DNA of 64,000 nt from Candidatus Zhuqueibacterota bacterium (GTDB lineage: Bacteria > Zhuqueibacterota > Zhuqueibacteria > Thermofontimicrobiales > Thermofontimicrobiaceae). Of the stretch, positions 43,654 through 57,948 are shown in pieces. The stretch is from positions 127,850 through 191,849 of the forward strand of contig JBMOPW010000044.1 of NCBI GenBank assembly GCA_049322915.1. Direction: 5' to 3'. A program made the position numbers and the translations under genes. Positions within the stretch are counted from its first letter, which is position 1. Each line of letters starts with the position of its first letter. Below the pieces are notes generated by a model. That model was not told the DNA's origin. It searched no databases and saw only the letters and a list, made by a program, of their open reading frames with translations.

Positions 43654-44115
43654 AGCAATTCCTCCATGTCATTTTTGCTACGTAAGAATATACACTTTAA
43701 TCGATTGGAAGGCAAGGAAAATATTGTATTTTTAAAATTACGCTCACACATGAGGTCTCAATAACACGTGGAGAATTAGAATCGATCTTTTCACATTTCA
43801 TAAGTGATGTCGCCTATCATTCCTCTACGGCGGATGGTGGTACAGCATTGAAATAAACAACACGTAAACATACTTATTCTATTACAAGTAAGTCTTAGAT
43901 AAGTCTCATACAAAGTCCCCATGCTCGCAAGGAAAAGAAGAATCAGACTCATCACAATTTTCCTTCGCATCCTCGGTTGTTGAAAAAATATGTGTGCAGC
44001 GTTTTCCTTGGAAATAATTCAGAGAGTGATTGAATTCGTAGATCATTTCAATTATCAAAACCATCTGCCGAATGATTAACAAACGCTCGGCTTTTCAAAA
44101 ATCTTCCAATACAGC

Positions 44116-44144
44116 TTGATTTCTACATTTTTTCGTGCTATAAT
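44116..44144 (+). promoter_or_regulatory. sigma70-type promoter
   Basis: TTGATT-17 bp-TATAAT with extended TG. Confidence 0.7.
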
Positions 44145-44190
44145 ATCCGTAAGAAAAAGTCAAAGCGCTAAAATCTGCAGCCGAAAAAAA

Positions 44191-44260
44191 TAAGCCAGAG
44201 ACAGAACCCGAATCGGACTCGTTACATAACTTTTTATGGGGGAGGGGATTTGGGTTTTTT
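44191..44260 (+). promoter_or_regulatory. Conserved leader with terminator-like hairpin, copy 1
   Basis: TAAGCCAGAGACAGAACCCGAATCGGACT; AACCCGAATC pairs with GATTTGGGTT, then a T run. Confidence 0.7.
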
Positions 44261-44322
44261 ATTTCTGTCGGTTGTTAACAGGCAGTACGCAGCAGGTTAA
44301 AAAACTGATCCTGCAGCGGTAA
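44236..44322 (+). pseudogene. Orphan C-terminal tail remnant (mini-ORF ending YFCRLLTGSTQQVKKLILQR*)
   Basis: Matches the last 20 codons of the gene ending at 53896. Confidence 0.65.
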
Positions 44323-44351
44323 TAAGAAATGATTCGTATAGGAGGATTTTT

Positions 44352-46031
44352 ATGTCCCGAGAGATAAACAAACCATTGACACTTTTTATTGTTATGATTT
44401 TTCTTTTAATTTCAGACCGACCCCAATCTTTGAGTCAATCGGCTCAAAGTGATAGAGAAAAGCAGCAACTAAACAGATTGACTCAATTGCAGGCCAACCA
44501 TCTTGACATCATTACTTCTATCGAGCGACATGGCGAGCCCTACAGCCTCTTTGCATTATCGGTGGCAGGCATTGGAGATATTAATCTGGATGGCTACGAT
44601 GATATCATTGTCGGAAATCCCTACAAGGGCGCCGGAGAAGCCCTGATTCTTTTGGGTGGCGCCGAGATGGATTCTATCCCCGATATTATTTTAAGAGGCG
44701 AAAATGATGGCGATGGATTTGGAGAAAAGGTCGCTTCGGGTGGTGATATCAATGGGGACGGTGGCCCGGATTTTATCGTGTCGGCGCCTGATTTTCCAAA
44801 TAGAAAAGGAAAAGGGAGAGCATATATTTATTTTGGCGGAGCAATTCTGGATAGTATTCCTGACGCCATTTTCACAGGCGAATTGAATTACAGCAACTTA
44901 GGAAGAGCCTCAATTGCCGTTGGGGATGTGAATGGAGATCAGTCCGATGACATGCTGGTTGGTGCCCCAAATTATTTGACAATCACAAGTCGAGGTAAGG
45001 CCTATCTTTATTTTGGCGGAGCTTTATTGGATAGCATTCCCGATTGGATGAATCAGGGAGACTCGAGCCGGGCATTGTTCGCATTTACACAATTGGCCAT
45101 AGGAGATGTCAACGGCGATGGATTAGCCGATCTTTTGATCAATAGCTCTCCTGACATTGGTGAATTGGGAAAAGATCATCTTGTAGTCACAGAAATATTC
45201 TTCAGCGGCGTAGAAATGGATACCCTCAGCGATTTATCCCTCACTGATAGTAGCTCGGGAAATTATCAGAATCAAATCCTGTTGTGTGATGACTTAAACC
45301 TAGATGGCGCAGATGATTTTGTTATTTATATGATTGATCGAGTAAGAGTCTATTTTGGCGGAGCGGATATAGACACGACAGCAGACTCTTATTTGTTGCC
45401 ATGGTATGGGGCGTCCATTAATCGCATCGCTTCAGCGGGTGACGTTAATGGCGATGGCTGGCTGGATATTCTGGCTGGATTTTATCACTTGTACTTTAAA
45501 ACGGCTTCCTGTGGACTTTACCTGGGGAGCCAAAAAATTGATCCAACAGTCGATTGGACTGCCGGAGGAGCTGGTGTTTCATTAGACGGCGCAGGGGATG
45601 TAAACGGCGATGGGTATGATGACATTATTGTAGGAATGTACAGTTCTCCTTATACATCGGTTGCCTGGGGCGCCGCCTGGATTCTGGCGGGTAAAGCCGA
45701 TTTGCAGGATATTCGCTCCAACGTGCGGCAGATAGAGCCGTCCGCGCCGCCGGACAAGCACATACTATTTCAGAATTACCCCAATCCGTTTAATGCCGAG
45801 ACTACAATTCGCTACCAGTTACCCCAGGCGTCAGCGGTAACCCTGACCATTTATAATCTCCTCGGTCAACAAATCCGGCGATTAGTAAATGAAAGACAAC
45901 TTGCCGGCAATTATTCAATTATTTGGGATGGCCGAGATGAGCAAGGGACAATTTTAGCCAGCGGGATTTATATCTACCGCCTCGAAGCCGGCTCGTTTGT
46001 CTCCAGCAAAAAGCTGGCGCTGGTGCGGTAG
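44352..46031 (+). CDS. Secreted FG-GAP (integrin-alpha-like) repeat protein with FlgD-Ig/Por-type tail
   Basis: Repeated GD(I/V)NGDG..D.IVGAP units; QNYPNPFN tail; AGGAGG RBS. Confidence 0.92.
   Translation: MSREINKPLTLFIVMIFLLISDRPQSLSQSAQSDREKQQLNRLTQLQANHLDIITSIERHGEPYSLFALSVAGIGDINLDGYDDIIVGNPYKGAGEALILLGGAEMDSIPDIILRGENDGDGFGEKVASGGDINGDGGPDFIVSAPDFPNRKGKGRAYIYFGGAILDSIPDAIFTGELNYSNLGRASIAVGDVNGDQSDDMLVGAPNYLTITSRGKAYLYFGGALLDSIPDWMNQGDSSRALFAFTQLAIGDVNGDGLADLLINSSPDIGELGKDHLVVTEIFFSGVEMDTLSDLSLTDSSSGNYQNQILLCDDLNLDGADDFVIYMIDRVRVYFGGADIDTTADSYLLPWYGASINRIASAGDVNGDGWLDILAGFYHLYFKTASCGLYLGSQKIDPTVDWTAGGAGVSLDGAGDVNGDGYDDIIVGMYSSPYTSVAWGAAWILAGKADLQDIRSNVRQIEPSAPPDKHILFQNYPNPFNAETTIRYQLPQASAVTLTIYNLLGQQIRRLVNERQLAGNYSIIWDGRDEQGTILASGIYIYRLEAGSFVSSKKLALVR
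45771..46031 (+). repeat. 261-bp C-terminal module, copy 1
   Basis: About 15 differences from 51439-51699 by manual alignment. Confidence 0.92.
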
Positions 46032-46146
46032 GCTCCAGAATCTTCTTCAGCAAAAGATTATCACAATGCTTGAAAAAGCCAATGGCTAAAAGCTATCCGC
46101 CTGAGGCGTTTAAAATTCTGGATCGTGAAAATTTTTAAAATAACAT

Positions 46147-46176
46147 TTGACTTTTATTTTTTTTTTTTATTATAAT
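46147..46176 (+). promoter_or_regulatory. sigma70-type promoter with a T12 tract in the spacer
   Basis: TTGACT-18 bp-TATAAT. Confidence 0.65.
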
Positions 46177-46223
46177 GATGTGACGATAAGCGACGATTGT
46201 AAAAGCTGAATCAGAAACAGCAT

Positions 46224-46295
46224 TAAGCCAGAGACAGAACCCGAATCGGACTTGCCATAATTTACATAAGGGGGAGGATTCGGGTTTTTATTTTT
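46224..46295 (+). promoter_or_regulatory. Conserved leader with terminator-like hairpin, copy 2
   Basis: Same 29-nt core; AACCCGAATC/GATTCGGGTT perfect stem, then a T-rich tail. Confidence 0.7.
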
Positions 46296-46362
46296 AATCA
46301 TACTAATTTATAGATTAAACACAAAAGTAATTTTTTATCCATATCAAAATAAGGAGATTGAA

Positions 46363-47070
46363 ATGGTTACTATGCGACATAAAAAAATTGTTGCCCTTGT
46401 TACCCTAATTATCATAAGTTGTTTTTTGAATTATACAAGCCATGGACAAGAGCAATGGATTCCTTTCACCAGTTATACCCAATCGAGACCGATTTTCAGC
46501 TTACATTATTCTAATAATGAAAACGTCTCGTTTTCTGTAGAAACTACCGGAATGGTCGTACTTGACGTTCTGGCGCAAGAGAAAACTTATCAAAGGTTGG
46601 CCATACCAGACCAGAATAAGTCCACAGGCGTCGGATTTCCTGAAATACCGGTGATCAGCCAATTAATTGCTATACCTGAGTGCGAGCAGGTCTTATTAAA
46701 AATAATTCCTATCGATTCAGTTTACATGGAAGATTATAATGTCTACCCTGTTCCGCAGATCGTCGAAAAGTATTATCCTGATGGTTACTCATATCCTGCC
46801 GAAGAATTTGCCATTAATGACAGCGTCTATTCGGTGGACCACTACTATCCAAATTCATTTGGTAAAATCGCTGAGTTGGCAAGTATAAGAGAGCAACAAG
46901 TTGCCAGAGTAGAAATTTATCCCATTCAGTTTAACCCTGTAGCAAATAATTTAAAGGTTTATACACATATTAAAGTTGGACTCAATTTTGTATCCCCGAA
47001 AAGTGCAGTGGTTAAAGACGTGGGACCGTTCTACAAAGCCTGCAGAGCAACTATTTTGAATTACAGATAA
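46363..47070 (+). CDS. Stand-alone C25 (gingipain) propeptide-domain protein
   Basis: Signal peptide; YQRLAIP, GFPEIPVISQLIAIP, IREQQVARVEIYPIQFNP...LKVY; AAGGAG RBS. Confidence 0.8.
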   Translation: MVTMRHKKIVALVTLIIISCFLNYTSHGQEQWIPFTSYTQSRPIFSLHYSNNENVSFSVETTGMVVLDVLAQEKTYQRLAIPDQNKSTGVGFPEIPVISQLIAIPECEQVLLKIIPIDSVYMEDYNVYPVPQIVEKYYPDGYSYPAEEFAINDSVYSVDHYYPNSFGKIAELASIREQQVARVEIYPIQFNPVANNLKVYTHIKVGLNFVSPKSAVVKDVGPFYKACRATILNYR

Positions 47071-47087
47071 CTTTAGGAGGTTTGAAA

Positions 47088-48440
47088 ATGTGGCGCACTA
47101 AGTTTTTAATACCATCAGTCATTTTTGCTTTATTCAATTTTTTTCAAGCCATCAATTTATATGCCCAGGGGTCATGGAAAATCATCCGACAAGATACACT
47201 AACTATATATACTGACATGGATTTTGTTGATAAGAATAATGGCTGGGTCATTGGATATAGTTTAGCTACCGTAGGAGTGGAAGCGGCCGATGTCATTATT
47301 CATACCAGTGATGGTGGCGAAACCTGGGAATATCAAAAATTCAGAACCGGAGGGCGTCTTTTTGCCTTGAATTTTATGGATTCGCTACATGGGTGGGCAC
47401 TGGCATACAATGGAGTGATACTACATACTAAAGACGGTGGTAAGAAATGGGACCCAGATTCGAGCCTTTACCAGCAGTGGTGGAAGCCGTGGTGGAGAGC
47501 TACCGACATATACTTTGTTGACACGTTGAAAGGATGGGTGATAGGCAATAATCCACAAGAAATATATCACACACAAAACGGTGGTAAAACATGGATCCAT
47601 CAGTATACCGGTGGAAGCGAGGACGGTTTCTCCACAGTTTTTTTCTTAGATTCTTTAGTAGGCTGGGTCAGTGATCGAGGTAAGATTCTACATACTGAAG
47701 ATAGTGGTAGGAATTGGATAAAGCAATATGTAGCGACAGATTCATTGTACTTCGGAAGTATCTATTTTATCAATTCACAATTAGGATGGATCGTTGGTGT
47801 GGGCCTTCCTCGCAATATAATTTTAAAGACCTCTGACGGCGGTCAATCATGGGAGGTTACGCCTATTGGATGGGGCTTTGAATTAGGGGGAATTTGTTTT
47901 GTAGATAGTCTTCATGGCTGGATTGCTGGCGGTCCCGTTGGAGGTTGTGTTTTGTATACCAATGACGGTGGAAAAACTTGGACTTCACAGGACACGGGGA
48001 TGGGCGAAGGTTTACTTCTTCGTTCGGTATGTTTCATCGATTCTTGTACTGGATGGGCAATGGGACCTGTAATATGCTCCGACATTACTAAGGTGCTAAA
48101 GTATACTTGTAGTTCCAGTAGCATAGACAACAATACACTGAATAACCCTATTTGTCCGGGTACTTTCAAGTTGCTTCAGAGTTATCCTAACCCCTTTAAT
48201 TTGGAAACAACAATTCGGTTCTACAATCCTCAGGCTGCTCGCATTAGTGTTGCCATTTATGATATTGGCGGACGATTGGTAAAAAGTTTGATTAGTAACG
48301 AAATGCTCTCTATAGGTTATCATGAGGTCCGCTGGAGCGGTAGAGACCAACAAGGAAATGTAGTTCCTAGTGGCGTTTATTTGTGCACGCTTAAGTCAAA
48401 AGAAAATGTTAAAGCAATAAAGTTAGTAGCCATCAAGTAA
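47088..48440 (+). CDS. YCF48/BNR-repeat beta-propeller protein with FlgD-Ig/Por-type tail
   Basis: Repeated F.D...GW..G...I.HT.DGG.TW; QSYPNPFN tail; AGGAGG RBS. Confidence 0.9.
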   Translation: MWRTKFLIPSVIFALFNFFQAINLYAQGSWKIIRQDTLTIYTDMDFVDKNNGWVIGYSLATVGVEAADVIIHTSDGGETWEYQKFRTGGRLFALNFMDSLHGWALAYNGVILHTKDGGKKWDPDSSLYQQWWKPWWRATDIYFVDTLKGWVIGNNPQEIYHTQNGGKTWIHQYTGGSEDGFSTVFFLDSLVGWVSDRGKILHTEDSGRNWIKQYVATDSLYFGSIYFINSQLGWIVGVGLPRNIILKTSDGGQSWEVTPIGWGFELGGICFVDSLHGWIAGGPVGGCVLYTNDGGKTWTSQDTGMGEGLLLRSVCFIDSCTGWAMGPVICSDITKVLKYTCSSSSIDNNTLNNPICPGTFKLLQSYPNPFNLETTIRFYNPQAARISVAIYDIGGRLVKSLISNEMLSIGYHEVRWSGRDQQGNVVPSGVYLCTLKSKENVKAIKLVAIK

Positions 48441-48469
48441 ATTTTAAAGAGTAAAGAGAGGGTCGAAAA

Positions 48470-51400
48470 ATGATAGCCAACACTCTAACAATAGGTATTG
48501 TCAAACGTATTCAGCTTTATATCATACTAATAGCTGTTTTGAGTTTTACACGTGGAATCATAATCATGAACCCCGAAGCCCAGGCGGGTGTTATTCGTTG
48601 TTCTACAGTCACGGCTTGCGCGACTAACAAGACCGACTATCTGATGATGGTCGCCAATGATCTCTATAACAATTCCTACATCGATAACCTTGCTAACCAT
48701 AGGGCAAGTTACAACGGATATAACATCGCCATCGTGAATGTTGAAAACATGACAGGATTTCCTTTCGACACTTTGGGAATTCGTGATTTTATCAAAGGTG
48801 TATATGAAACGCAAAGTGCACAACACATGAGTGATGGCGTTTAGGATTCGTTCTTCTTATAGGCGATGCATATAAAGACGACAATGCAACCAGAATGCTC
48901 TGGGATTATGATGCGTATAACTATTTGAACCGTCGTCCGCAAGAAGAGTGTGCCGATCATTTTTATGCCTGTCTAACATTCAGCGGATCACGACCTGATG
49001 ATTTACCAGATGTCATGATCGGGCGTTTATCTGCAGGGAATGCGACTGAACTCGCTAATGTTGTTAATAAGATCATCAATTATGAAACCGCTTATGCAGG
49101 CGGGGATTGGCGGGATGATATTTTGCTTTTTGAAGGTCAGGGTCTTGCTGGTTATAGTCAATTTAACAGCATTGACGATTACCTCCAAGCAGAATCCCAA
49201 ATTACCCACTTTTTATACCGATATGAGCCTGCTCACGCCGACGCAGATTTTATGATTCGTTATAACGATGTTTATCCTCCACCAACTACCAATATAGATG
49301 ATGCCACACAGAAGCTTATTGCCGAATTCAATGCAGGTAGATTCATTTTTAATTACGAGTGTGATCATGGCTCTAAGTTTGGATTTCATCCGGATGGAGA
49401 AGGCCATTGTTACACCTATTTCGACGTTAATGATATTCCAAGCCTTGCCAATGGTGCAAAACTCGCCTTTTGGCTGAACGTTTGTTGTAAAACGGGTTGG
49501 TTTGATAATCTCGATGTAGATCCTTGTTTTGGTAGTAATGTAGATTGCTTAGCTGAGCAATTACAATATGCCAATAATAGAGGCGGCATTGCTGTTTTAG
49601 CTTCATCAAGAGATGATGCTACTGGCTCCTATGGTGTCGTTGACAAATATGTCTATGAAGCGATATTTGATAAGGATGGTTATAATTATAATTATAATGT
49701 TGATCTGATTGGCGAAGCAATTTTGCAGGCAAAATTTAGATGGGAATCCTGGCTAAGGCATAAATATAATTTATTTGGTGATCCATCCCAAAATCTTTTT
49801 CCCCAAGGGCTCCGCAGCACAATTTCCGAAGCTACAGCATATAATAATAGTCGGAAGCTTCTTCGTGATGCAAATGGAAGATATCATTTAGTGTATGAAT
49901 CTAACGGTGAAATATTTTACCAATACTCTGTGAATGGGAACGGATGGATAGGTGGATTTAGGCTTAGCACTGGCAATGGAAACAACAAATATGCCTCCGT
50001 CACCGGTACCAGCAGCAAGCAGTTTGTGGTCTGGCAACGGTATACAGGCTATAGCGGCGGTCTGCATAGATACGATACCTACTTTGCTAAAAACACGGGC
50101 ACGGGCTGGTACACCAGCACCATTGCCAATCTCTCTAACCTCGGTTTTTCTACGCCAACCAATTCTTTGCCAGTAATAACTTACAAGAACGTGAGCGGTG
50201 TTAATCGTCTTATTGTCTGCGCTAAGACAAGCTCTGCCATTAAGTACGTCACTTCTGATAATGACGGCAGCACCTGGAGTTCGGCTGCCAATGTACCTTC
50301 CACCTCATCCAGCCATGCCAATCCCAGTTTATCCATGGGACCAACCACACCTGCCAGTACTATTTATGTCAGCTATGATAACGGCAGTAATGTTTACTAC
50401 AATAACTACACCACGGCCTGGGGCAGCGCTGTCAATGTCTCCAACGGCTGTGGCACCTCCACGAATCGTTATTCCTCGGTAGAGGTCGATGGTAGTTCGG
50501 GCAAAAATTTTGTCTGGCAGGGGTATTCCAATCCTGTGGAGCTATGGGTGATTATGCACCGCCGCAATAGTGAAGCTTTTCAGATGTTTTATCCCTACGG
50601 TGGCGAGGGTAGCTATCGTCCTTCGATTACTGGACATGCCAGTAATAAGCGCTCGATCGTCTGTTATGATGATCTGAATCAAATCCGCCGCGCTTATTTT
50701 AATGGCAGTAGTTGGTCGGAAACAGTAGCTGCGACCAATGGGGTCCATCCTGGATTATCTGCGGGCACGACTGCCGCCAAATATGTTTGGACCAGCGGCA
50801 CGGTTTCACCCTATGAAATCAAAATCAGCACTGAACAATTGTCTAAAAGTAACTTTGAGAACATCGTCTATCATCGTGCGAGCGTGCTGCAGGATACCGC
50901 CAACAGTTCATTGTTGTGGGTCGAATTGGGCGAGATCAAGCTGGTAACAGGAACGATCGAATTGGAGCTTCCACAACTATCAATCCAGAACCAAAACCTA
51001 TCACTGACACCAGCGACAGCCTTTCAGTATCTTGATAGTGAGCTATTTGTTATCCCTGACGAATCGACAAATTTAGCCTGGTATCAAAATATCTATGGCG
51101 CTGGTTTACAACGACTGACAGCGGCGGATTCACAGAATTTAGTTATCAAAGTTCAACTCCTCGAAGTCGGAAGCAGTAACACAATAACGACATTGCAAGA
51201 AGAGTCGCTTGCTGCAACAACTGAGGAAAGCAGGAATAAAGGATATATGACCCAGGATATTTCTGATCATCGAGGCAAGCATGTAAAACTGACGGTAACA
51301 GTAGAAGGGTTAGCGTCCAAATTAGCAGGGATTGTCCCTGGCGTGACTGAAATATATCTTATTAAAAAAGAAGGTGTTGGTAAAGAACGACCAGAGTTAT

Positions 51401-51699
51401 TAACCAATGAGCAACAGCCTGCAGATTTTGTATTATGGCAGAATTACCCCAATCCGTTCAATGCCGAGACTACAATTCGCTACCAGTTACCCCAGGCGTC
51501 AGCGGTAACCCTGACCATTTATAACCTCCTCGGTCAACAAATCCGGCGATTAGTAAATGAAAGACAACTTGCCGGCAATTATTCAATTATTTGGGATAGC
51601 CGGGATGGACAAGGGACAGTTTTAACCAGCGGCATTTATGTCTATCGCCTCGAAGCCGGTTCGTTTGTCTCCAGCAAAAAGCTGGCGCTGATTCGATAG
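48470..51699 (+). pseudogene. C25 (gingipain-like) cysteine peptidase with BNR-like region and tail, interrupted by a 1-nt frameshift near 48838
   Basis: DYLMMV...LANHR...IRDFI in the first frame; LGFVLLIGDA, PDVMIGRL, DHG, CCKTGWFD and YNLFGDP in the second. Confidence 0.8.
51439..51699 (+). repeat. 261-bp C-terminal module, copy 2
   Basis: About 11 differences from 57362-57622 by manual alignment. Confidence 0.92.
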
Positions 51700-52040
51700 G
51701 TGTATGACAGCCTGCCCAAAAAATCCTGACCAGCGTGATGAGTCTGCATCCCTATTGTGAACGGCTGGCGCAGGGACGGTGGATATTAAAGTAGCAGCCA
51801 ACTTCAGCGGCGCGAGCCGCATCACCGATGTCGATAATGACGAAGTTGATAAAATTTTGGAGAGTTGATTTTTGGTCGGAAAATAGTGCTGACAAATTGA
51901 AGCCCCATTGATTCGTTGGGACTTTTTTTTGAAAGGCTGGCTAGTAAAAAAAATCTTCAAATACAGCTTGATTTCTATATTTTTTTGTGCTATGATATCC
52001 GTGAGAAAAAGAGAAAGCGCGAAAAGCCGAAGCAGAAAAA

Positions 52041-52110
52041 TAAGCCAGAGACAGAACCCGAATCGGACTCGTTACAGAATTTTTTATGGGGGAGGGGATT
52101 TGGGTTTTTT
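52041..52110 (+). promoter_or_regulatory. Conserved leader with terminator-like hairpin, copy 3
   Basis: Same 29-nt core and stem as copy 1. Confidence 0.7.
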
Positions 52111-52172
52111 ATTTCTGTCGGTTGTCTACAGGAAGCACGCAGCAGGCAAAAAAACTGATCCTGCTGCGGTAA
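52086..52172 (+). pseudogene. Orphan C-terminal tail remnant (mini-ORF ending YFCRLSTGSTQQAKKLILLR*)
   Basis: CGCAGCAGGCAAAAAAACTGATCCTGCTGCGGT is identical to the end of the gene at 53896. Confidence 0.7.
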
Positions 52173-52201
52173 TAAGAAATGATTCGTATAGGAGGATTTA
52201 T

Positions 52202-53896
52202 ATGTCCCGAGAAATAAACAAATCATTGGTCATTTTTATCATTTTGATTCTTCCTGCAATTTCAGGCCGAGCCCAATCTTTGAATCAATCGGTTCAACGT
52301 GATAGAGAACAGCAGCAGTTTAGCAGGCTGACTCAATCGCAAGCCAATCAGCTTGACATCATTACTTCTATCGAGAGACACGGAGAGCCTTATAGCCTAT
52401 TTGCATTATCAGTGGCTGGGATTGGCGATATTAATCTGGATGGCTTTGATGATGTGATCATAGGAAATTATTACAAGGGAGCAGGAGAAGCTTTGATTTT
52501 ATTTGGAGGAGTAGATATGGATTCTATCCCCGATATTATTTTGCACGGTGAAAATGAGGGAGATGGATTTGGTGAAAAGGTCGCCTTCGGCGGTGATATC
52601 AACGGTGATGGTGATCCGGATTTTATCGTGTCGGCACCTGACTACCCAAATGGAAAAGGAAAAGGGAAAGTATATATTTATTTTGGCGGGTCAATTCTGG
52701 ATAGTATTCCTGACGCCATTTTCACAGGTGAATTGGATCACGGCAACTTAGGAAGAGCCTCCATTGCCGTTGGAGACATGAACAATGACAGTTGTGATGA
52801 TATATTAGTGTCCGCGCCCAATTATTGGCCAGTCTTCAGACTTGGCAAGGTATATCTCTACTATGGGGGGGCTTTGTTGGATAGCATCCCCGATTGGAGC
52901 AATCAAAGCGATACTCTAAGATATTACTTTGGTGAGCGTCTGGCTACAGGTGATGTCAATGGTGATGGTTTGAAGGACTTGTTGATAAATAGTACTCAAG
53001 ATATTAATGAACCTGGTCACGATTATCTAGTCCACACTGAAATATTCTTTAATGCATCCAAAGTGGATACCTTGAGTGATCTTATCCTTACTGACAGCAG
53101 CCCCGGGAATATGCAAAATCAGATCCTGTTGTGTGATGACTTAAACCTGGATGGCGCTGATGATTTTGTTATCAGAATAGATAATAACACAGGTATTTAT
53201 TCGAACATTTTTTTTGGCGGTGCAGATTTGGACACAATTGCTGATGCTTATTTAATCCCATGGCCTGGAGTGGGCATTAATCGCATCGCCACTGCTGGTG
53301 ACGTTAATGGCGATGGCTGGCCGGATATTCTGGCTGGGTTTTATCATTCCTTCTTTCAAACGGCTTCCTGCGGTCTTTATCTGGGAAGTCAAAAAATTGA
53401 TCCAACCGTGGATTGGACTGCCGGAGGCGCTGGTGTTTCAGTGGACGGCGCCGGGGATGTAAACGGTGACGGCTATGATGACATTATTGTGGGAATGTAC
53501 AGTTCTCCTTATACATCGGTTGCCTGGGGCGCTGCCTGGATTCTGGCGGGAAAAGCCGATTTGCAGGATATTCGCACCAACGTACGGCAGTTAGAGCCGT
53601 CCGCGCCGCCGGACAAGTATACGCTATTTCAGAATTACCCCAACCCTTTTAACCAACAAACGCGAATTCGCTACCGTCTCAGTTCTAAATTTGAAAAACA
53701 GGTAGCGATAACTATTTACGACATCAACGGAAAGGAGGTGAGCAAGTTAACTGATGAGCAGCAGACACCCGGCGAGCATGAAGTCGTCTGGGATGGCAGA
53801 GATCAACAAGGAAAGGAGGTGAACAGCGGAATGTATCTATGTCGGTTGTCAATCGGCAGTGCGCAGCAGGCAAAAAAACTGATCCTGCTGCGGTGA
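52202..53896 (+). CDS. Secreted FG-GAP repeat protein, paralog of 44352-46031 with a different tail
   Basis: MSREINK start with AGGAGG RBS; FG-GAP repeats; QNYPNPFNQQTRIRY...KKLILLR. Confidence 0.92.
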   Translation: MSREINKSLVIFIILILPAISGRAQSLNQSVQRDREQQQFSRLTQSQANQLDIITSIERHGEPYSLFALSVAGIGDINLDGFDDVIIGNYYKGAGEALILFGGVDMDSIPDIILHGENEGDGFGEKVAFGGDINGDGDPDFIVSAPDYPNGKGKGKVYIYFGGSILDSIPDAIFTGELDHGNLGRASIAVGDMNNDSCDDILVSAPNYWPVFRLGKVYLYYGGALLDSIPDWSNQSDTLRYYFGERLATGDVNGDGLKDLLINSTQDINEPGHDYLVHTEIFFNASKVDTLSDLILTDSSPGNMQNQILLCDDLNLDGADDFVIRIDNNTGIYSNIFFGGADLDTIADAYLIPWPGVGINRIATAGDVNGDGWPDILAGFYHSFFQTASCGLYLGSQKIDPTVDWTAGGAGVSVDGAGDVNGDGYDDIIVGMYSSPYTSVAWGAAWILAGKADLQDIRTNVRQLEPSAPPDKYTLFQNYPNPFNQQTRIRYRLSSKFEKQVAITIYDINGKEVSKLTDEQQTPGEHEVVWDGRDQQGKEVNSGMYLCRLSIGSAQQAKKLILLR

Positions 53897-53929
53897 ATAA
53901 TAATTGAATTTTAACAGGAGGTTTTGGCT

Positions 53930-56900
53930 ATGAGAACAAAACAGTTGCTTTCAGCAAAGCAGTGGCTGTCGAGCTTATTCTTTGTGTTACTTCCCTTAGT
54001 GGAAGTAATAGCCCAGCAATTCCCTATTGGCACTTATTGGGTGGCAACAGATCGCGAACGATATGATCAATATCCCCAGGTCGCTGATTGTGGTATCAAT
54101 ATTATTTCCGGAGGTAATTATAATGGCGTATCGCCCCTGCCTAACATTTTAGCGGCAGCCGAGGCATCAAACATCACTATGTTGATTAGCGGTATTAATG
54201 GAACGGATTCTCTTCAGTGGTATGGAGGAAGTCAGAGTGGTTACGATTCTTACCGCGCATATCGTTTGCCCTATGAATCCGATGGTTATCAACCAATACC
54301 TGAATTACAGACCATAGAACATACACTCATTTATGATTTTTCTCATGCAGTGGGTGAGCCATTGCAAGAGGGTGGAAAAACGGTATGGCGAGCTACGCCA
54401 TCTCAAGGCCCGGGGCTTTTGCTGCATGCCTACGACGACAGCGAATGGCAGCATCTGGGCTACACTTACCTTGCGACCTTCGTTTTAAAGGTCGATAACA
54501 ACAGCGGTCATGTTCTGGTTGCTACAGTGCGGATTGTTGAGGGAACAACCAATTTGGTTGATGAGCAAATTTTTTCCGATAATTTTACCGCCAATGGCAC
54601 TTACCAGGAATTTGAGTACGAATTCACCACCAGCGGCAGCTCTCTTTCAGGTGGCGGAGAAAGTGAAGACGATATTACCAGCATGCTTCCAGAAGGTAGC
54701 ACCGAATCCACGATGCAAGTGGCTCTGGATTCTCTGGATTATCAGGTGGAATACCATGGCAATCGAACGCTGACAGTTGATCGCGCAATCATTGAAAACC
54801 GCTGGGGAGATCGACTGTACGACGGGCACAAAGATTCCGACCTGTTAGCTGATGTACAATGGGCGTTCAACCAGGATGGCGGGGATCCGACGATTAGAGG
54901 ATTCTACACGGATGAGCCACAAATAACCCGTATTGATCCAATGCGGTATGTCAATAATTTGATAGGGCCAATAACACCCTCAAGGTTCGGCTTTCGTGAA
55001 ACAGTTCAGTCGACAGTTTGTATAGATTATGTTTTTAATCAATATTTAAATGCTGGTCTTCCTGTTAATCAGGATCATAAGCTTTTAGTGGATCGTTATC
55101 CTATAGAATATGGAGCCCCGGAACCTGGTGATCCGAATTATAATAATTATATTCAGGGTAGATGGGATGGCTATTTGATCCCGTTTCTATCGGACGCAAA
55201 TTTTGTATCATCGCTCAATGGAAAGCCATTTTGGTACGCGGTACAAGCCCATAGTTGGGATCTCCCTAGCCAACAGTGGCATCGAGATCCTGCTCCGATT
55301 GAGATTCGCTGCATGGCTAATTTAGGCGTTGTGTACGGAGCAAAGGGAATATTCTACTTTCTCTACACTTCAATCCGATCAACTTATCCTGCATATGAAG
55401 GAGCAATTGGTCTGGTAGATATTAATTTTAATCACAACTACGAACCTTATCTATCCAAGTGGAATGAAGTGCAGCAGATAAATGCCAACCTTCAATATAT
55501 GGCTTCTGACTTACTGTCATTGAATTGGCAAAGTGCCTTCACTTCCGGCGATGCGGTTCCTGATGGCAGTGTCGTGCAAAGCATCACCGGAGGTGATTAC
55601 ATTGAAATAGGCAATTTTACACACCAAACTTCAGGACATCCTTACATTATGCTTGTCAATCGTCGTTGTGAAGCAACAGACACACAGACCATATCTGTCA
55701 CCACAAATAAAACAGATCAGCCTTACCAAATTGAAGACAAATTAACCGGGGAGTGTTATGTAACAAGTGACGGCATCTTTCGAAATATTTCATTAGAAGC
55801 GGGCGCCGGCAGGCTCTTTGAAATGACACCAGTATTTGATACGAATGAAACGTGGGACTATCTGATAAATATTTCCAGTGATGTTACGATACCAACATCA
55901 AAGGTTTTGACAATTACATCAGGTACGACTATCAAATTCGCTTCAGCCACCGAACTAAAAATCAACGGCACACTCAACGCCTATGGCACTTCTGCCAATC
56001 CCATTACATTCACCAGCGCCAGTGCTTCGCCTGCTTCCGGTGACTGGGACTGGATCAAATTCGATGGCGGTACAGGAACTGTTCAATATTGCGATATCGA
56101 ATACGCCAAATTCGGTTTGTGGTTTTATGGTTCGTCAACCAATCCGACCGTAACCAATTGTTCAGTTAGGAACTGTTCTTACTACGGCGCCTATTTTCTC
56201 AATAACAGCGCTACCACGTTTCAGTATAATGATTTGAGTGATAATTCACTGCATGGGTTGCTGTTGATTACTTCCAGTCCGACTCTGCTAAATGTAACTT
56301 CAACCAATAATAGCAGCAACGGACTTTTTTTGAGCAACTCCTCCCCCAAAATCGGTTCCATCGATACGACCTTTAGTCAGCAGAGTCAATTTGCTGATAA
56401 TACATCAGACGGAATTTATTGTTCAGGTTCCTCGGGCAGCCATCCCTGGATTTACCGCAACAGTGTTTCAAATCCTTATGGTGGTTACACGCAAATTATC
56501 GACAATGGCAGCGACGGTTTGACAGCGATACAAAAGTCTCATCCCATTTTAGGTTCTTCTGCTTCTTCGCAGGGGAATAACAGCATTTATGGTAATTCTG
56601 CTTATCAAATCTGCAACAATAACAGCGATTATTCCATCTATGCTCGTCATAACTGGTGGGGATCAGCCAATGGATATCCTGCTGGTTCGTTTTACGGTAC
56701 CGTAGTGGCGGTGCCATATTTGACATATCAGCCTGGTGTTGGGGTTTCCAGCAGCCCTAATTTTGTACCCGCGATGGCGTCGAATGAGACCAGCAGAGCA
56801 GCAGACAGCCTTATTGAAAACGGAGAAGAGCTGATGATTCAGGGAAAATATGAACAAGCGGTGCCACTGTTTATTCAGACGACTCATGAGTTTCCGGAAT

Positions 56901-57622
56901 CAGCCGAAGCTCGGCAAGCGCTGAGCAGCCTCGTGCTTTGCTACCGTGAGATGGGACAGGCGAATGAAACACTAATGATGCTCGACCAATATGCTGAAGC
57001 TTACGCGCAGCAGCAAATCGGTTCCTGGGCATTGAACCTTTCGTTGCCGATTTTGGAATTGCAGGGAAAATATCACAGCTTTATCGAACGATGTAACCTG
57101 TTGCTTACGGAGTTTTCCGAACATGAGAGCGTCTCCGATTATCTGCTTTTTGATTTGGGTATGGTTTATAAATATGGCGTAAGCGACATGGAATCGGCAA
57201 AACGGTATTTTGAGGAATTTATCACTGCCCAGCCGCACGATCCTTTGACAGAAATCGCATTGGTTGAAATGAATACCATCGGTTCTCCCCAGCTATTCAA
57301 AGGAAAACCAGCAGAACAAAAAACTGCAAGCGATCATACTCTCTTTGACTTTGAGTTCTTTCAGAATTATCCCAATCCGTTCAATGCCGAGACTACAATT
57401 CGCTACCAGTTACCCCAGGCGTCGGCGGTAACCCTGACCATTTATAACCTCCTCGGTCAACAAATCCGGCGATTAGTAAATGAAAGACAACTTGCCGGCA
57501 ATTATTCAATTATTTGGGATAGCCGGGATGAACAGGGGACAGTTTTATCCAGCGGCATTTATATCTATCGCCTCGAAGCCGGCTTCTTCGTCGCCAGCAA
57601 AAAGCTGGCGCTGATTCGATAG
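53930..57622 (+). CDS. Large secreted multidomain protein (possible glycosidase-like barrel, right-handed beta-helix, TPR, tail)
   Basis: Signal peptide, FPIG, GFYTDEP, YGAKGIFYF; GTSANPITFTS...GDW and beta-helix repeats; A..NWWG; TPR; QNYPNPFN. Confidence 0.85.
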   Translation: MRTKQLLSAKQWLSSLFFVLLPLVEVIAQQFPIGTYWVATDRERYDQYPQVADCGINIISGGNYNGVSPLPNILAAAEASNITMLISGINGTDSLQWYGGSQSGYDSYRAYRLPYESDGYQPIPELQTIEHTLIYDFSHAVGEPLQEGGKTVWRATPSQGPGLLLHAYDDSEWQHLGYTYLATFVLKVDNNSGHVLVATVRIVEGTTNLVDEQIFSDNFTANGTYQEFEYEFTTSGSSLSGGGESEDDITSMLPEGSTESTMQVALDSLDYQVEYHGNRTLTVDRAIIENRWGDRLYDGHKDSDLLADVQWAFNQDGGDPTIRGFYTDEPQITRIDPMRYVNNLIGPITPSRFGFRETVQSTVCIDYVFNQYLNAGLPVNQDHKLLVDRYPIEYGAPEPGDPNYNNYIQGRWDGYLIPFLSDANFVSSLNGKPFWYAVQAHSWDLPSQQWHRDPAPIEIRCMANLGVVYGAKGIFYFLYTSIRSTYPAYEGAIGLVDINFNHNYEPYLSKWNEVQQINANLQYMASDLLSLNWQSAFTSGDAVPDGSVVQSITGGDYIEIGNFTHQTSGHPYIMLVNRRCEATDTQTISVTTNKTDQPYQIEDKLTGECYVTSDGIFRNISLEAGAGRLFEMTPVFDTNETWDYLINISSDVTIPTSKVLTITSGTTIKFASATELKINGTLNAYGTSANPITFTSASASPASGDWDWIKFDGGTGTVQYCDIEYAKFGLWFYGSSTNPTVTNCSVRNCSYYGAYFLNNSATTFQYNDLSDNSLHGLLLITSSPTLLNVTSTNNSSNGLFLSNSSPKIGSIDTTFSQQSQFADNTSDGIYCSGSSGSHPWIYRNSVSNPYGGYTQIIDNGSDGLTAIQKSHPILGSSASSQGNNSIYGNSAYQICNNNSDYSIYARHNWWGSANGYPAGSFYGTVVAVPYLTYQPGVGVSSSPNFVPAMASNETSRAADSLIENGEELMIQGKYEQAVPLFIQTTHEFPESAEARQALSSLVLCYREMGQANETLMMLDQYAEAYAQQQIGSWALNLSLPILELQGKYHSFIERCNLLLTEFSEHESVSDYLLFDLGMVYKYGVSDMESAKRYFEEFITAQPHDPLTEIALVEMNTIGSPQLFKGKPAEQKTASDHTLFDFEFFQNYPNPFNAETTIRYQLPQASAVTLTIYNLLGQQIRRLVNERQLAGNYSIIWDSRDEQGTVLSSGIYIYRLEAGFFVASKKLALIR
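57362..57622 (+). repeat. 261-bp C-terminal module, copy 3
   Basis: Near-identical to copies 1 and 2. Confidence 0.92.
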
Positions 57623-57863: not shown

Positions 57864-57948
57864 TGGTGCCGAAGGCGGGATTCGAACCCGCACACCGCTA
57901 GGCACTACCCCCTCAAGATAGCGTGTCTGCCAATTCCACCACTTCGGC
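57864..57948 (-). tRNA. tRNA-Leu (GAG)
   Basis: GCCGAAG/CTTCGGC acceptor stem, CTATC-TTGAGGG-GGTAG anticodon arm, long variable arm, GGTTCGAATCC, encoded CCA; follows secG. Confidence 0.97.

Follow-up and report, generated by a model that had tools for sequence, protein, structure and literature searches.

A repeated terminator-like leader ahead of type IX secretion cargo genes in a Zhuqueibacterota genome: a possible lineage-specific attenuator

What is the role of a leader that is repeated, without a single change in its 29-nucleotide (nt) box, in front of three transcription units for secreted proteins? This question is raised by a 64,000-nt stretch of DNA (the window) from Candidatus Zhuqueibacterota bacterium, which comprises positions 127,850 to 191,849 of the forward strand of contig JBMOPW010000044.1 (assembly GCA_049322915.1). 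To our knowledge, this phylum has neither cultured representatives nor known regulatory RNAs of its own. An earlier note on this DNA, prepared from the sequence alone, had proposed that the leaders are attenuators, riboswitches or antiterminator-loading sites. The element appears to be a lineage-restricted representative of a well-known kind, the leader terminator. Our preferred reading, to which we give slightly less than even weight, is that of a cis-acting, lineage-specific attenuator opened by a trans-acting factor that reads the box.

Anatomy of the element

The invariant box TAAGCCAGAGACAGAACCCGAATCGGACT is present on the + strand of the window at three sites, each time as an exact match and each time behind a promoter and as part of a hairpin:

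44116..44144, + strand: promoter of unit 1, TTGATT-17-TATAAT with TG (extended -10), 10/12 hexamer matches; aligns with the promoter of copy 3
44191..44219, + strand: invariant box, copy 1 (exact match)
44203..44264, + strand: hairpin 1, 5' arm 44203-44214, 3' arm 44247-44258, U tract 44255-44264; -21.7 kcal/mol
46147..46176, + strand: promoter of unit 2, TTGACT-18-TATAAT, 11/12 matches
46224..46252, + strand: invariant box, copy 2 (exact match)
46236..46296, + strand: hairpin 2, 5' arm 46236-46247, 3' arm 46277-46288, then the U tract; -19.8 kcal/mol
51968..51996, + strand: promoter of unit 3, TTGATT-17-TATGAT with TG
52041..52069, + strand: invariant box, copy 3 (exact match)
52053..52114, + strand: hairpin 3, 5' arm 52053-52064, 3' arm 52097-52108, U tract to 52114; -18.5 kcal/mol

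A scan of the window with up to 3 mismatches revealed no copy of the 29-mer beyond these three, and none of 100 shuffled sequences contained a match. Searching the whole genome (designated G000; 6.25 Mb in 45 contigs, 96% complete) with the 17-mer core, at up to 2 mismatches, also returned only the three window copies. Read-derived DNA contigs agree with the assembly, and breaks between unitigs fall inside the repeated 29-mer. The boxes begin 46, 47 and 44 nt (copies 1, 2 and 3) past the end of a near-consensus sigma-70 promoter, so that the earlier note was correct both in the position of the three identical leaders and in their distance from the -10 box (44–47 nt).

The box is composed of a single-stranded RGAGA box, the 5' arm of a stem and the sequence GGACU, its final 17 bases being the start of the hairpin. 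In the 12-bp stem, AGAACCCGAAUC pairs with GAUUUGGGUUUU (copies 1 and 3) or GAUUCGGGUUUU (copy 2), the RNA form of the 3' arm being GAUUYGGGUUUU. The arms are separated by 29–32 nt, with inner CUC/GAG pairs within the loop, and the stem is followed by a U tract (TTTTTTATTT or TTTTTATTTTT). The pairing described in the earlier note is therefore correct, including the replacement of G-U (copies 1 and 3) by G-C in the 3' arm of copy 2. It is also strand-specific: the folding energy of the + strand RNA ranges from -18.5 to -21.7 kcal/mol in the three copies, whereas the complementary strand folds at -12.4 (copy 1) and -14.8 kcal/mol (copy 2), which is 5–9 kcal/mol worse.

The sequence features that define an intrinsic terminator are present, i.e. 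CCCG/YGGG within the 12-bp stem and a U tract immediately 3' of it. Three tRNA genes located behind the same promoter type each end in a hairpin plus U tract, which indicates that this genome uses such structures as intrinsic terminators. The -35 motif CTTGACTTTT occurs at 45 sites in the genome, three of them before tRNA genes, so that the element has no promoter type of its own; the view that it is part of an element-specific cassette was rejected, since the motif is a generic strong -35 sequence of this genome. From promoter to U tract each window unit spans about 112 nt, and an AT-rich spacer of 63–90 nt precedes the start codons.

A narrow family in related genomes

The earlier note had not recognized the family to which the leader belongs, and no Rfam family matches it. 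At the gathering score of Rfam 15, a tRNA at 57867-57948 was the sole match in the whole window; at E≤10 the region 43900-52500 produced three chance eukaryotic matches, none on the element, and at E≤1 the element remained unmatched in 12 homologous loci. A covariance model built from the three window copies (R1) detected a fourth, divergent copy in the genome (G000:C41:28711-28785, - strand) and clear relatives within the same taxonomic family. With a refined model (R2), the element was found in 7 of the 21 genomes of the order at E≤0.01. At E≤0.001, matches were obtained in 6 of 151 genomes of the phylum, all belonging to one family, and in none of the 139 genomes outside it, with 30 candidates scored per genome.

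Metagenome contigs provided 73 loci by motif pattern, 7 of which hold 8 sense-strand matches to the model. One metagenome copy, located before a different gene, retains 28 of the 29 box positions, and one contig carries two tandem units ahead of paralogous genes, as in the window. Searches by pattern among genomes yielded less: with up to 3 mismatches allowed, a 26-mer matched only one (G000) of 41 genomes, and a 17-base degenerate pattern, which is too unspecific, marked 120 stretches of genome contigs, with none of the 80 loci searched passing the model.

Across 16 non-redundant members (the alignment omits the near-duplicates L182, L013/L219 and L191), between 18 and 29 of the 29 box positions are conserved. 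The core GAACCnGAAUC is near-invariant, nine of its ten fixed positions being identical in 16/16 members and the tenth in 15/16; it is typically preceded by RGAG(A) and followed by GGAnUC. Judged by these comparisons, the element is a real but narrow family and not a private repeat.

The features of a mobile-element end or of a miniature inverted-repeat transposable element are lacking, as the genome contains only three copies plus the divergent one. The genes around the copies are of housekeeping, chemotaxis and secreted-protein types, yet a truncated coding fragment lies behind the U tract in copies 1 and 3 and in the related locus L012. A known family and a mobile-element end, two of the findings that the earlier note had named as fatal to its reading, were thus not encountered when Rfam, copy number and context were considered.

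The divergent copy at G000:C41:28711-28785 and the member L015 (G001:C8) have a tandemly duplicated 5' arm (ACCUGAAUCAGAACCUGAAUC), and their stems carry a compensatory U-A pair. The gene downstream of the divergent copy encodes a secreted redoxin/beta-helix protein.

Conservation of the box and pairing in the RNA

Copies 1 and 3 lie within a duplication of 81% identity. Between them the box is 100% identical and the remaining leader 85–100% (depending on the segment), as compared with 80% for the coding DNA and 67% for third codon positions. Copies 1 and 2 likewise share 100% of the box, while identity falls to 65% in the loop and to 47–74%, by segment, in the other flanks. The different flanks that the earlier note had ascribed to copy 2 are indeed diverged, but they are not unrelated: about 95 nt around this copy align to copies 1 and 3 at 79%.

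Homogenization within the array has to be considered here, as the last ~270 nt (tail-coding sequence) of three otherwise unrelated genes are 93% identical (45763-46032, 51431-51700 and 57359-57622), which suggests recent gene conversion or tail swapping. For the box itself, selection would fit better than conversion, because the two conserved blocks fall on the stem arms and the 5' box, and because other genomes conserve the element. The earlier suggestion that the core is under selection, as opposed to a chance repeat, is supported by this contrast between box and flanks and by the conservation in relatives.

When the 12 stem pairs were followed through the 16 sequences, 94.8% of 191 cells were standard pairs. 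The changes observed in the stem (C-G to U.G, A-U to G.U, G.U to G-C) all keep pairing in RNA, and one pair runs through C-G, U.G and U-A, i.e. it is compensatory. An alignment of 11 sequences showed no two-sided change in the stem, and the covariation support that can be read from these alignments is modest. A 9-bp DNA palindrome, CCGAATCGG, is lost in relatives while the RNA stem is kept; a DNA operator was rejected on this ground. An alternative hairpin can also be drawn, in which a GAG box, a CUC box and an inner stem sequester the 5' arm; it would explain why conservation spans the region from the 5' box to GGACU.

Downstream genes and position of the leader

The genes that follow the three window copies are listed below:

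44352..46031, + strand: unit 1, gene with an FG-GAP repeat (6e-36) and a type IX secretion C-terminal domain (Por_Secre_tail, 8.7e-07)
46363..51699, + strand: unit 2, C25 (gingipain-family) peptidase in pieces
46363-47070 and 47082-48440, + strand: parts of unit 2 by domain search, a propeptide open reading frame (ORF) and a BNR/Ycf48-like secretion-tail gene
48470-48844 and 48895-51699, + strand: catalytic pieces of unit 2, with a frame change near 48840
52202..57622, + strand: unit 3, two tail-bearing genes, one for an FG-GAP paralog (52202-53896) and one for a beta-helix protein (53924-57622)

In all loci where the start of the downstream gene is readable, it begins with a signal peptide, and the gene lies on the same strand and close behind the element. 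Por_Secre_tail is present in the downstream gene of the three window units and of L178, L163a, L013 and L021; the gene behind L176 encodes a BNR protein without the tail, and those of L014, L015, L010, L197 and L193 are partial or unassigned. Given that only about 207 of 4296 ORFs (4.8%) in the genome carry this tail, the association of the element with tail-bearing genes is well above the base rate. A genome-wide search and an inspection of downstream gene classes, both proposed in the earlier note, led to signal-peptide genes, mostly type IX cargo.

A subtype, the G013-type loci, is informative about the position of the leader. Here, the distance from the end of the U tract to the ATG is about 26 nt, and the promoter is located about 270–290 nt upstream. 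Because 26 nt leave no room for a promoter, the gene must be transcribed through the hairpin. A promoter within the loop was rejected, as the TTGACA found there lies 31 nt from the nearest TATCTT (by eye). Within the long leader, ACUGAC motifs are repeated and the 5' arm has a near-duplicate; no consistent fold was found for this leader.

The ACUGAC(N)CGG motif occurs four to six times within the G013-type leader, and immediately 5' of the promoter of L178, L163 and L193, all of this type, there are long, perfect palindromes (ACTGACCGGTC ... GACCGGTCAGT), one or two in number. These palindromes and repeats may represent a protein-binding repeat.

Proposed function and competing explanations

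According to the attenuator reading, transcription would be started by a strong housekeeping-type promoter, and some 50 nt of RNA (in one subtype as much as about 270 nt) would be made before the box, the long hairpin and the U tract are reached. The putative intrinsic terminator would separate the promoter from the ribosome-binding site of the secreted-protein gene that follows. In the default state, many of the transcripts would end at this point, and the gene would be expressed from read-through transcripts only. A trans-acting factor, most likely a protein, might recognize the 5' arm together with both flanks (RGAGA ... GAACCYGAAUC GGAnUC) and hinder closure of the stem, possibly by way of the weak alternative hairpin of GAG and CUC boxes, which would hold the 5' arm. 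The anatomy of the element, its conservation, its strand-specific pairing and its genomic context can be read from the sequences; termination, its control by read-through and the existence of the factor are what we infer. Of the earlier proposals, a 5' leader with a terminator-like hairpin before secreted-protein genes stands, both here and in relatives, while a riboswitch is unlikely. A more specific form of this reading, in which the element is a dedicated RNA-level switch for type IX cargo arrays, read by an RNA-binding factor or by the UpxY-like NusG paralog described below, appears doubtful.

Several observations weigh against the attenuator. No candidate regulator was found beside any of the copies. 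In other genera the 29-mer scores 18–24/29, strong conservation being limited to the stem core, and concerted evolution may lie behind part of the perfect identity within the genome. Two-sided change is confined to one stem pair, and 15 of 500 shuffles reach the covariation score; such a score can be attained by related sequences without structure. In the alternative hairpin, 83% of 77 cells are paired, covariation is absent and the folding energy is weak, at -3 to -10 kcal/mol. Moreover, the users of the element are the three units and the one divergent copy, out of about 207 tail-bearing genes, so that it does not serve as a general signal for secreted-protein operons. A crude detector of terminator-like hairpins, which left copies 2 and 3 unscored owing to ORF calling, revealed no enrichment upstream of tail-bearing genes (41/159 against 616/2743), nor when the comparison was restricted to genes with a divergent neighbour (8/30 against 143/685). 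A general link between secretion-tail genes and leader terminators was rejected on these counts.

Other explanations have to be weighed against the same body of evidence. The copies could be sibling trans-acting small RNAs, with the 29 nt as their seed and the downstream gene transcribed either through a leaky terminator or from its own weak promoter, which the 63–90 nt AT-rich spacer could hide. Every unit has its own strong promoter and terminator, and several copies share one perfectly conserved stretch amid variable remainders; in multi-copy small RNAs, Qrr among them, about 30 nt are likewise common to all copies without change. However, the G013-type RNA is a leader, with some 26 nt from U tract to ATG, and the element always points in the same direction as a nearby secreted-protein gene. 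Furthermore, complementary sites of 12 nt in the genome number 13, against about 13 expected, with none of at least 14 nt (a long antisense partner was rejected for lack of such an excess), and no Hfq gene was found by a search that was positive in 5 of 14 control genomes. On balance, small RNAs seem a rather unlikely solution. It is also fairly unlikely that the leader is an unregulated promoter-leader cassette, copied by tandem duplication and homogenized by conversion, with the hairpin acting as a constitutive leaky terminator, as an insulator against read-in from the preceding unit or as a 5' stabilizer. Such a cassette would agree with the 81% duplication that contains copies 1 and 3, with the evident conversion of tail DNA in three unrelated genes and with the narrow distribution in one family. 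The hairpins may also end the upstream units, since a search downstream of the stop codons at 46031 and 51699 revealed no other terminator-like site before the respective leader hairpin. Nevertheless, copy 1 has no co-directional gene before it, the upstream neighbour of unit 1 being divergent; the two blocks of identity (arms plus 5' box) around a 65% loop in copy 2 do not resemble a single conversion tract; and the element is kept across genera before different genes.

The leader as a loading site for a specialized NusG paralog, i.e. processive antitermination with polymerase pausing at the hairpin and U tract, is improbable in our opinion. The earlier note had proposed a search for NusG paralogs, and the genome does possess one: besides the housekeeping copy (secE-nusG-rplK), there is one UpxY-like second gene (G000:C14:704486). 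Known systems of this type, UpxY/opsX and LoaP, combine a recruiting element with a hairpin or terminator in the leader (PMC12691694, PMC11685472). The distribution of the paralog does not track the element, though, since it is encoded by 6 of the 7 element-bearing genomes of the order but also by 7 of the 14 genomes without the element, the element-bearing exception being a genome that is 82% complete. The gene is located on another contig, far from all the copies, and the units are short (1–4 genes) in comparison with the long operons usual for such factors. Between promoter and U tract the three leaders contain neither a UNCG site closed by more than one flanking pair nor the ops-like GGCGGTAG; one UNCG site with three flanking pairs occurs in copy 3, downstream of the U tract and within the tail relic described below. 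A small-molecule riboswitch using the hairpin as its expression platform is most improbable. A platform of the terminator type in a 5' leader, with conserved sequence upstream, would suit it, whereas a conserved multi-helix domain is missing (the consensus fold 5' of the 3' arm amounts to -1 kcal/mol), the 45 nt from the transcription start to the box are rich in A, with no more than 61% identity when copies 1 and 2 are compared, and the leader measures between about 110 and about 290 nt and shows repeats instead of a fixed architecture. The absence of an Rfam match and of a common metabolic theme among the downstream genes also argues against it.

Some further candidates were considered. A leader peptide was rejected, as the loop holds either no AUG-started mini-ORF or one that varies between the copies. 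The sequence CCAGAGA resembles the PyrR motif, but a PyrR-like box was rejected, with no Rfam PyrR match and no pyrimidine genes downstream. No T-box was seen on the element (Rfam, 43900-52500), and no ANTAR dual hairpins were seen by eye. ANTAR (PF03861) had no match in G000, but as it had none in any of the 14 control genomes either, this zero carries no weight. CsrA is encoded in the genome (G000:C3:112008); GGA motifs occur in the element and are lost in some of its members.

In the region L218 (G000:C14:702986-706261), the NusG paralog occupies positions 1450-1986, and about 3 kb contain hardly any long ORFs; a run of CAGATAAC/CAGATACC-like 8-mers follows the gene at about 1990-2140.

Comparison with known regulatory systems

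Leaders that combine a ribonucleic antiterminator (RAT) with a terminator are read by antiterminator proteins of the BglG/LicT/SacY type. The present element resembles them in that about 29 conserved nt are located just upstream of, and overlap, the 5' arm of the terminator, and in that the weak alternative hairpin that can be drawn could rival the terminator only with the help of a protein. It differs from them in several respects: no CAT_RBD protein (PF03123) was found in this genome, with the same search positive in 4 of 14 control genomes, the alternative hairpin lacks covariation support, and the genes encode secreted surface proteins and not sugar-use functions. The parallel with sibling small RNAs of the Qrr type extends to the multiple copies, the one invariant stretch and the individual promoter and terminator. 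In contrast to those RNAs, the copies described here stand directly before a gene on the same strand, and one subtype has no room for a separate promoter.

The NusG paralog LoaP acts on the dfn and mln leaders of Bacillus velezensis (PMC12691694). As in our case, these leaders have a short conserved RNA element upstream of an intrinsic terminator (a putative one in ours), the element stands in nearly identical form before more than one operon, and a NusG paralog is present in the genome. The leaders analysed here have no UNCG-tetraloop hairpin, their box overlaps the terminator arm whereas the LoaP element lies apart from it, and the distribution of the paralog does not follow the element. The opsX element, which is connected with UpxY in Bacteroides capsule operons, comes from the same neighbourhood at about the level of the superphylum; an UpxY-like paralog is found in both cases, and in both a leader element of about 30–40 nt adjoins an RNA hairpin at which polymerase would pause (PMC11685472). 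For opsX, this report describes a pause site with no termination observed, and the Y gene heads its own operon. The hairpin of the present element, on the other hand, has a full U tract, and no paralog is located within the units.

What is known of the regulation of type IX secretion cargo concerns mostly the initiation of transcription. A conserved leader with a terminator ahead of genes of this kind would add a control point during elongation, and the more specific reading of a dedicated switch, if true, would make it the first case of transcription attenuation described for type IX secretion substrates. Among sources covered mostly by title and abstract, a literature search revealed no RNA leader described for type IX secretion cargo, and it found nothing that combines KSB1 with type IX secretion. 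The element is compact and testable and comes from an uncultured candidate phylum; its reach is limited to one family and to few genes per genome.

Origin of the copies

In copies 1 and 3 the U tract runs straight into the relic of a coding sequence:

44260..44349, + strand: tail relic 1, derived from the coding 3' end of a type IX secretion tail and from its intergenic spacer; ORF remnant 44236-44322
52110..52199, + strand: tail relic 2, behind the U tract of copy 3, 90% identical to the relic of copy 1

Relic 1 is 80% identical to 53834-53925, which comprises the real tail end of the gene 52202-53896 and the spacer before the gene 53924. The relic covers the last ~70 nt of a tail coding sequence, and the remnant still reads ...YFCRLLTGSTQQVKKLILQR-stop. 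In a 284-nt contig of a related organism from another sample, an intact tail end is joined straight to the FG-GAP start region. This junction, together with the relic, indicates that the FG-GAP gene once followed a tail-bearing gene. Probably, a deletion or other rearrangement ending at the U tract placed the leader by the FG-GAP gene, and the unit was duplicated afterwards. Such a history would illustrate a route by which leaders spread, in which a deletion fuses the leader to the tail end of an adjacent gene and the leader is then copied along with the gene.

In locus L012 (G005:C452), at positions 1501-1750, the 3' arm and the U tract are read in frame as the conserved segment DDSGFF...ALNGAPGIY from the middle of an rdgB/HAM1-like gene. 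This gene lacks its first ~65 codons, and the genome's own rdgB is only 40% identical to it. The junction may be another rearrangement or fusion at the U tract, or a chimeric contig.

Gene context and additional observations

The surroundings of the three units in the window (purine, glycolysis, chemotaxis and fmt genes) are those of an ordinary chromosome, and no mobile-element genes were found in the window. Within unit 2, a complete BNR/Ycf48-like tail gene sits between the propeptide ORF of the C25 peptidase and its split catalytic domain; this broken-up peptidase may reflect a pseudogene, an insertion or a sequencing error.

At copy 3, an open frame starting from TTG at 51908 crosses the promoter and the leader and runs into the FG-GAP gene (51908-52201). 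This extension is non-coding, because the homologous stretch of copy 1 contains stop codons; it can, nevertheless, mislead gene callers.

Two other sites in the genome, G000:C34:132207 (+ strand) and G000:C34:152421 (- strand), have strong promoters with a hairpin and U tract within about 70–110 nt, and they are candidates for small RNAs or for leaders of other families.

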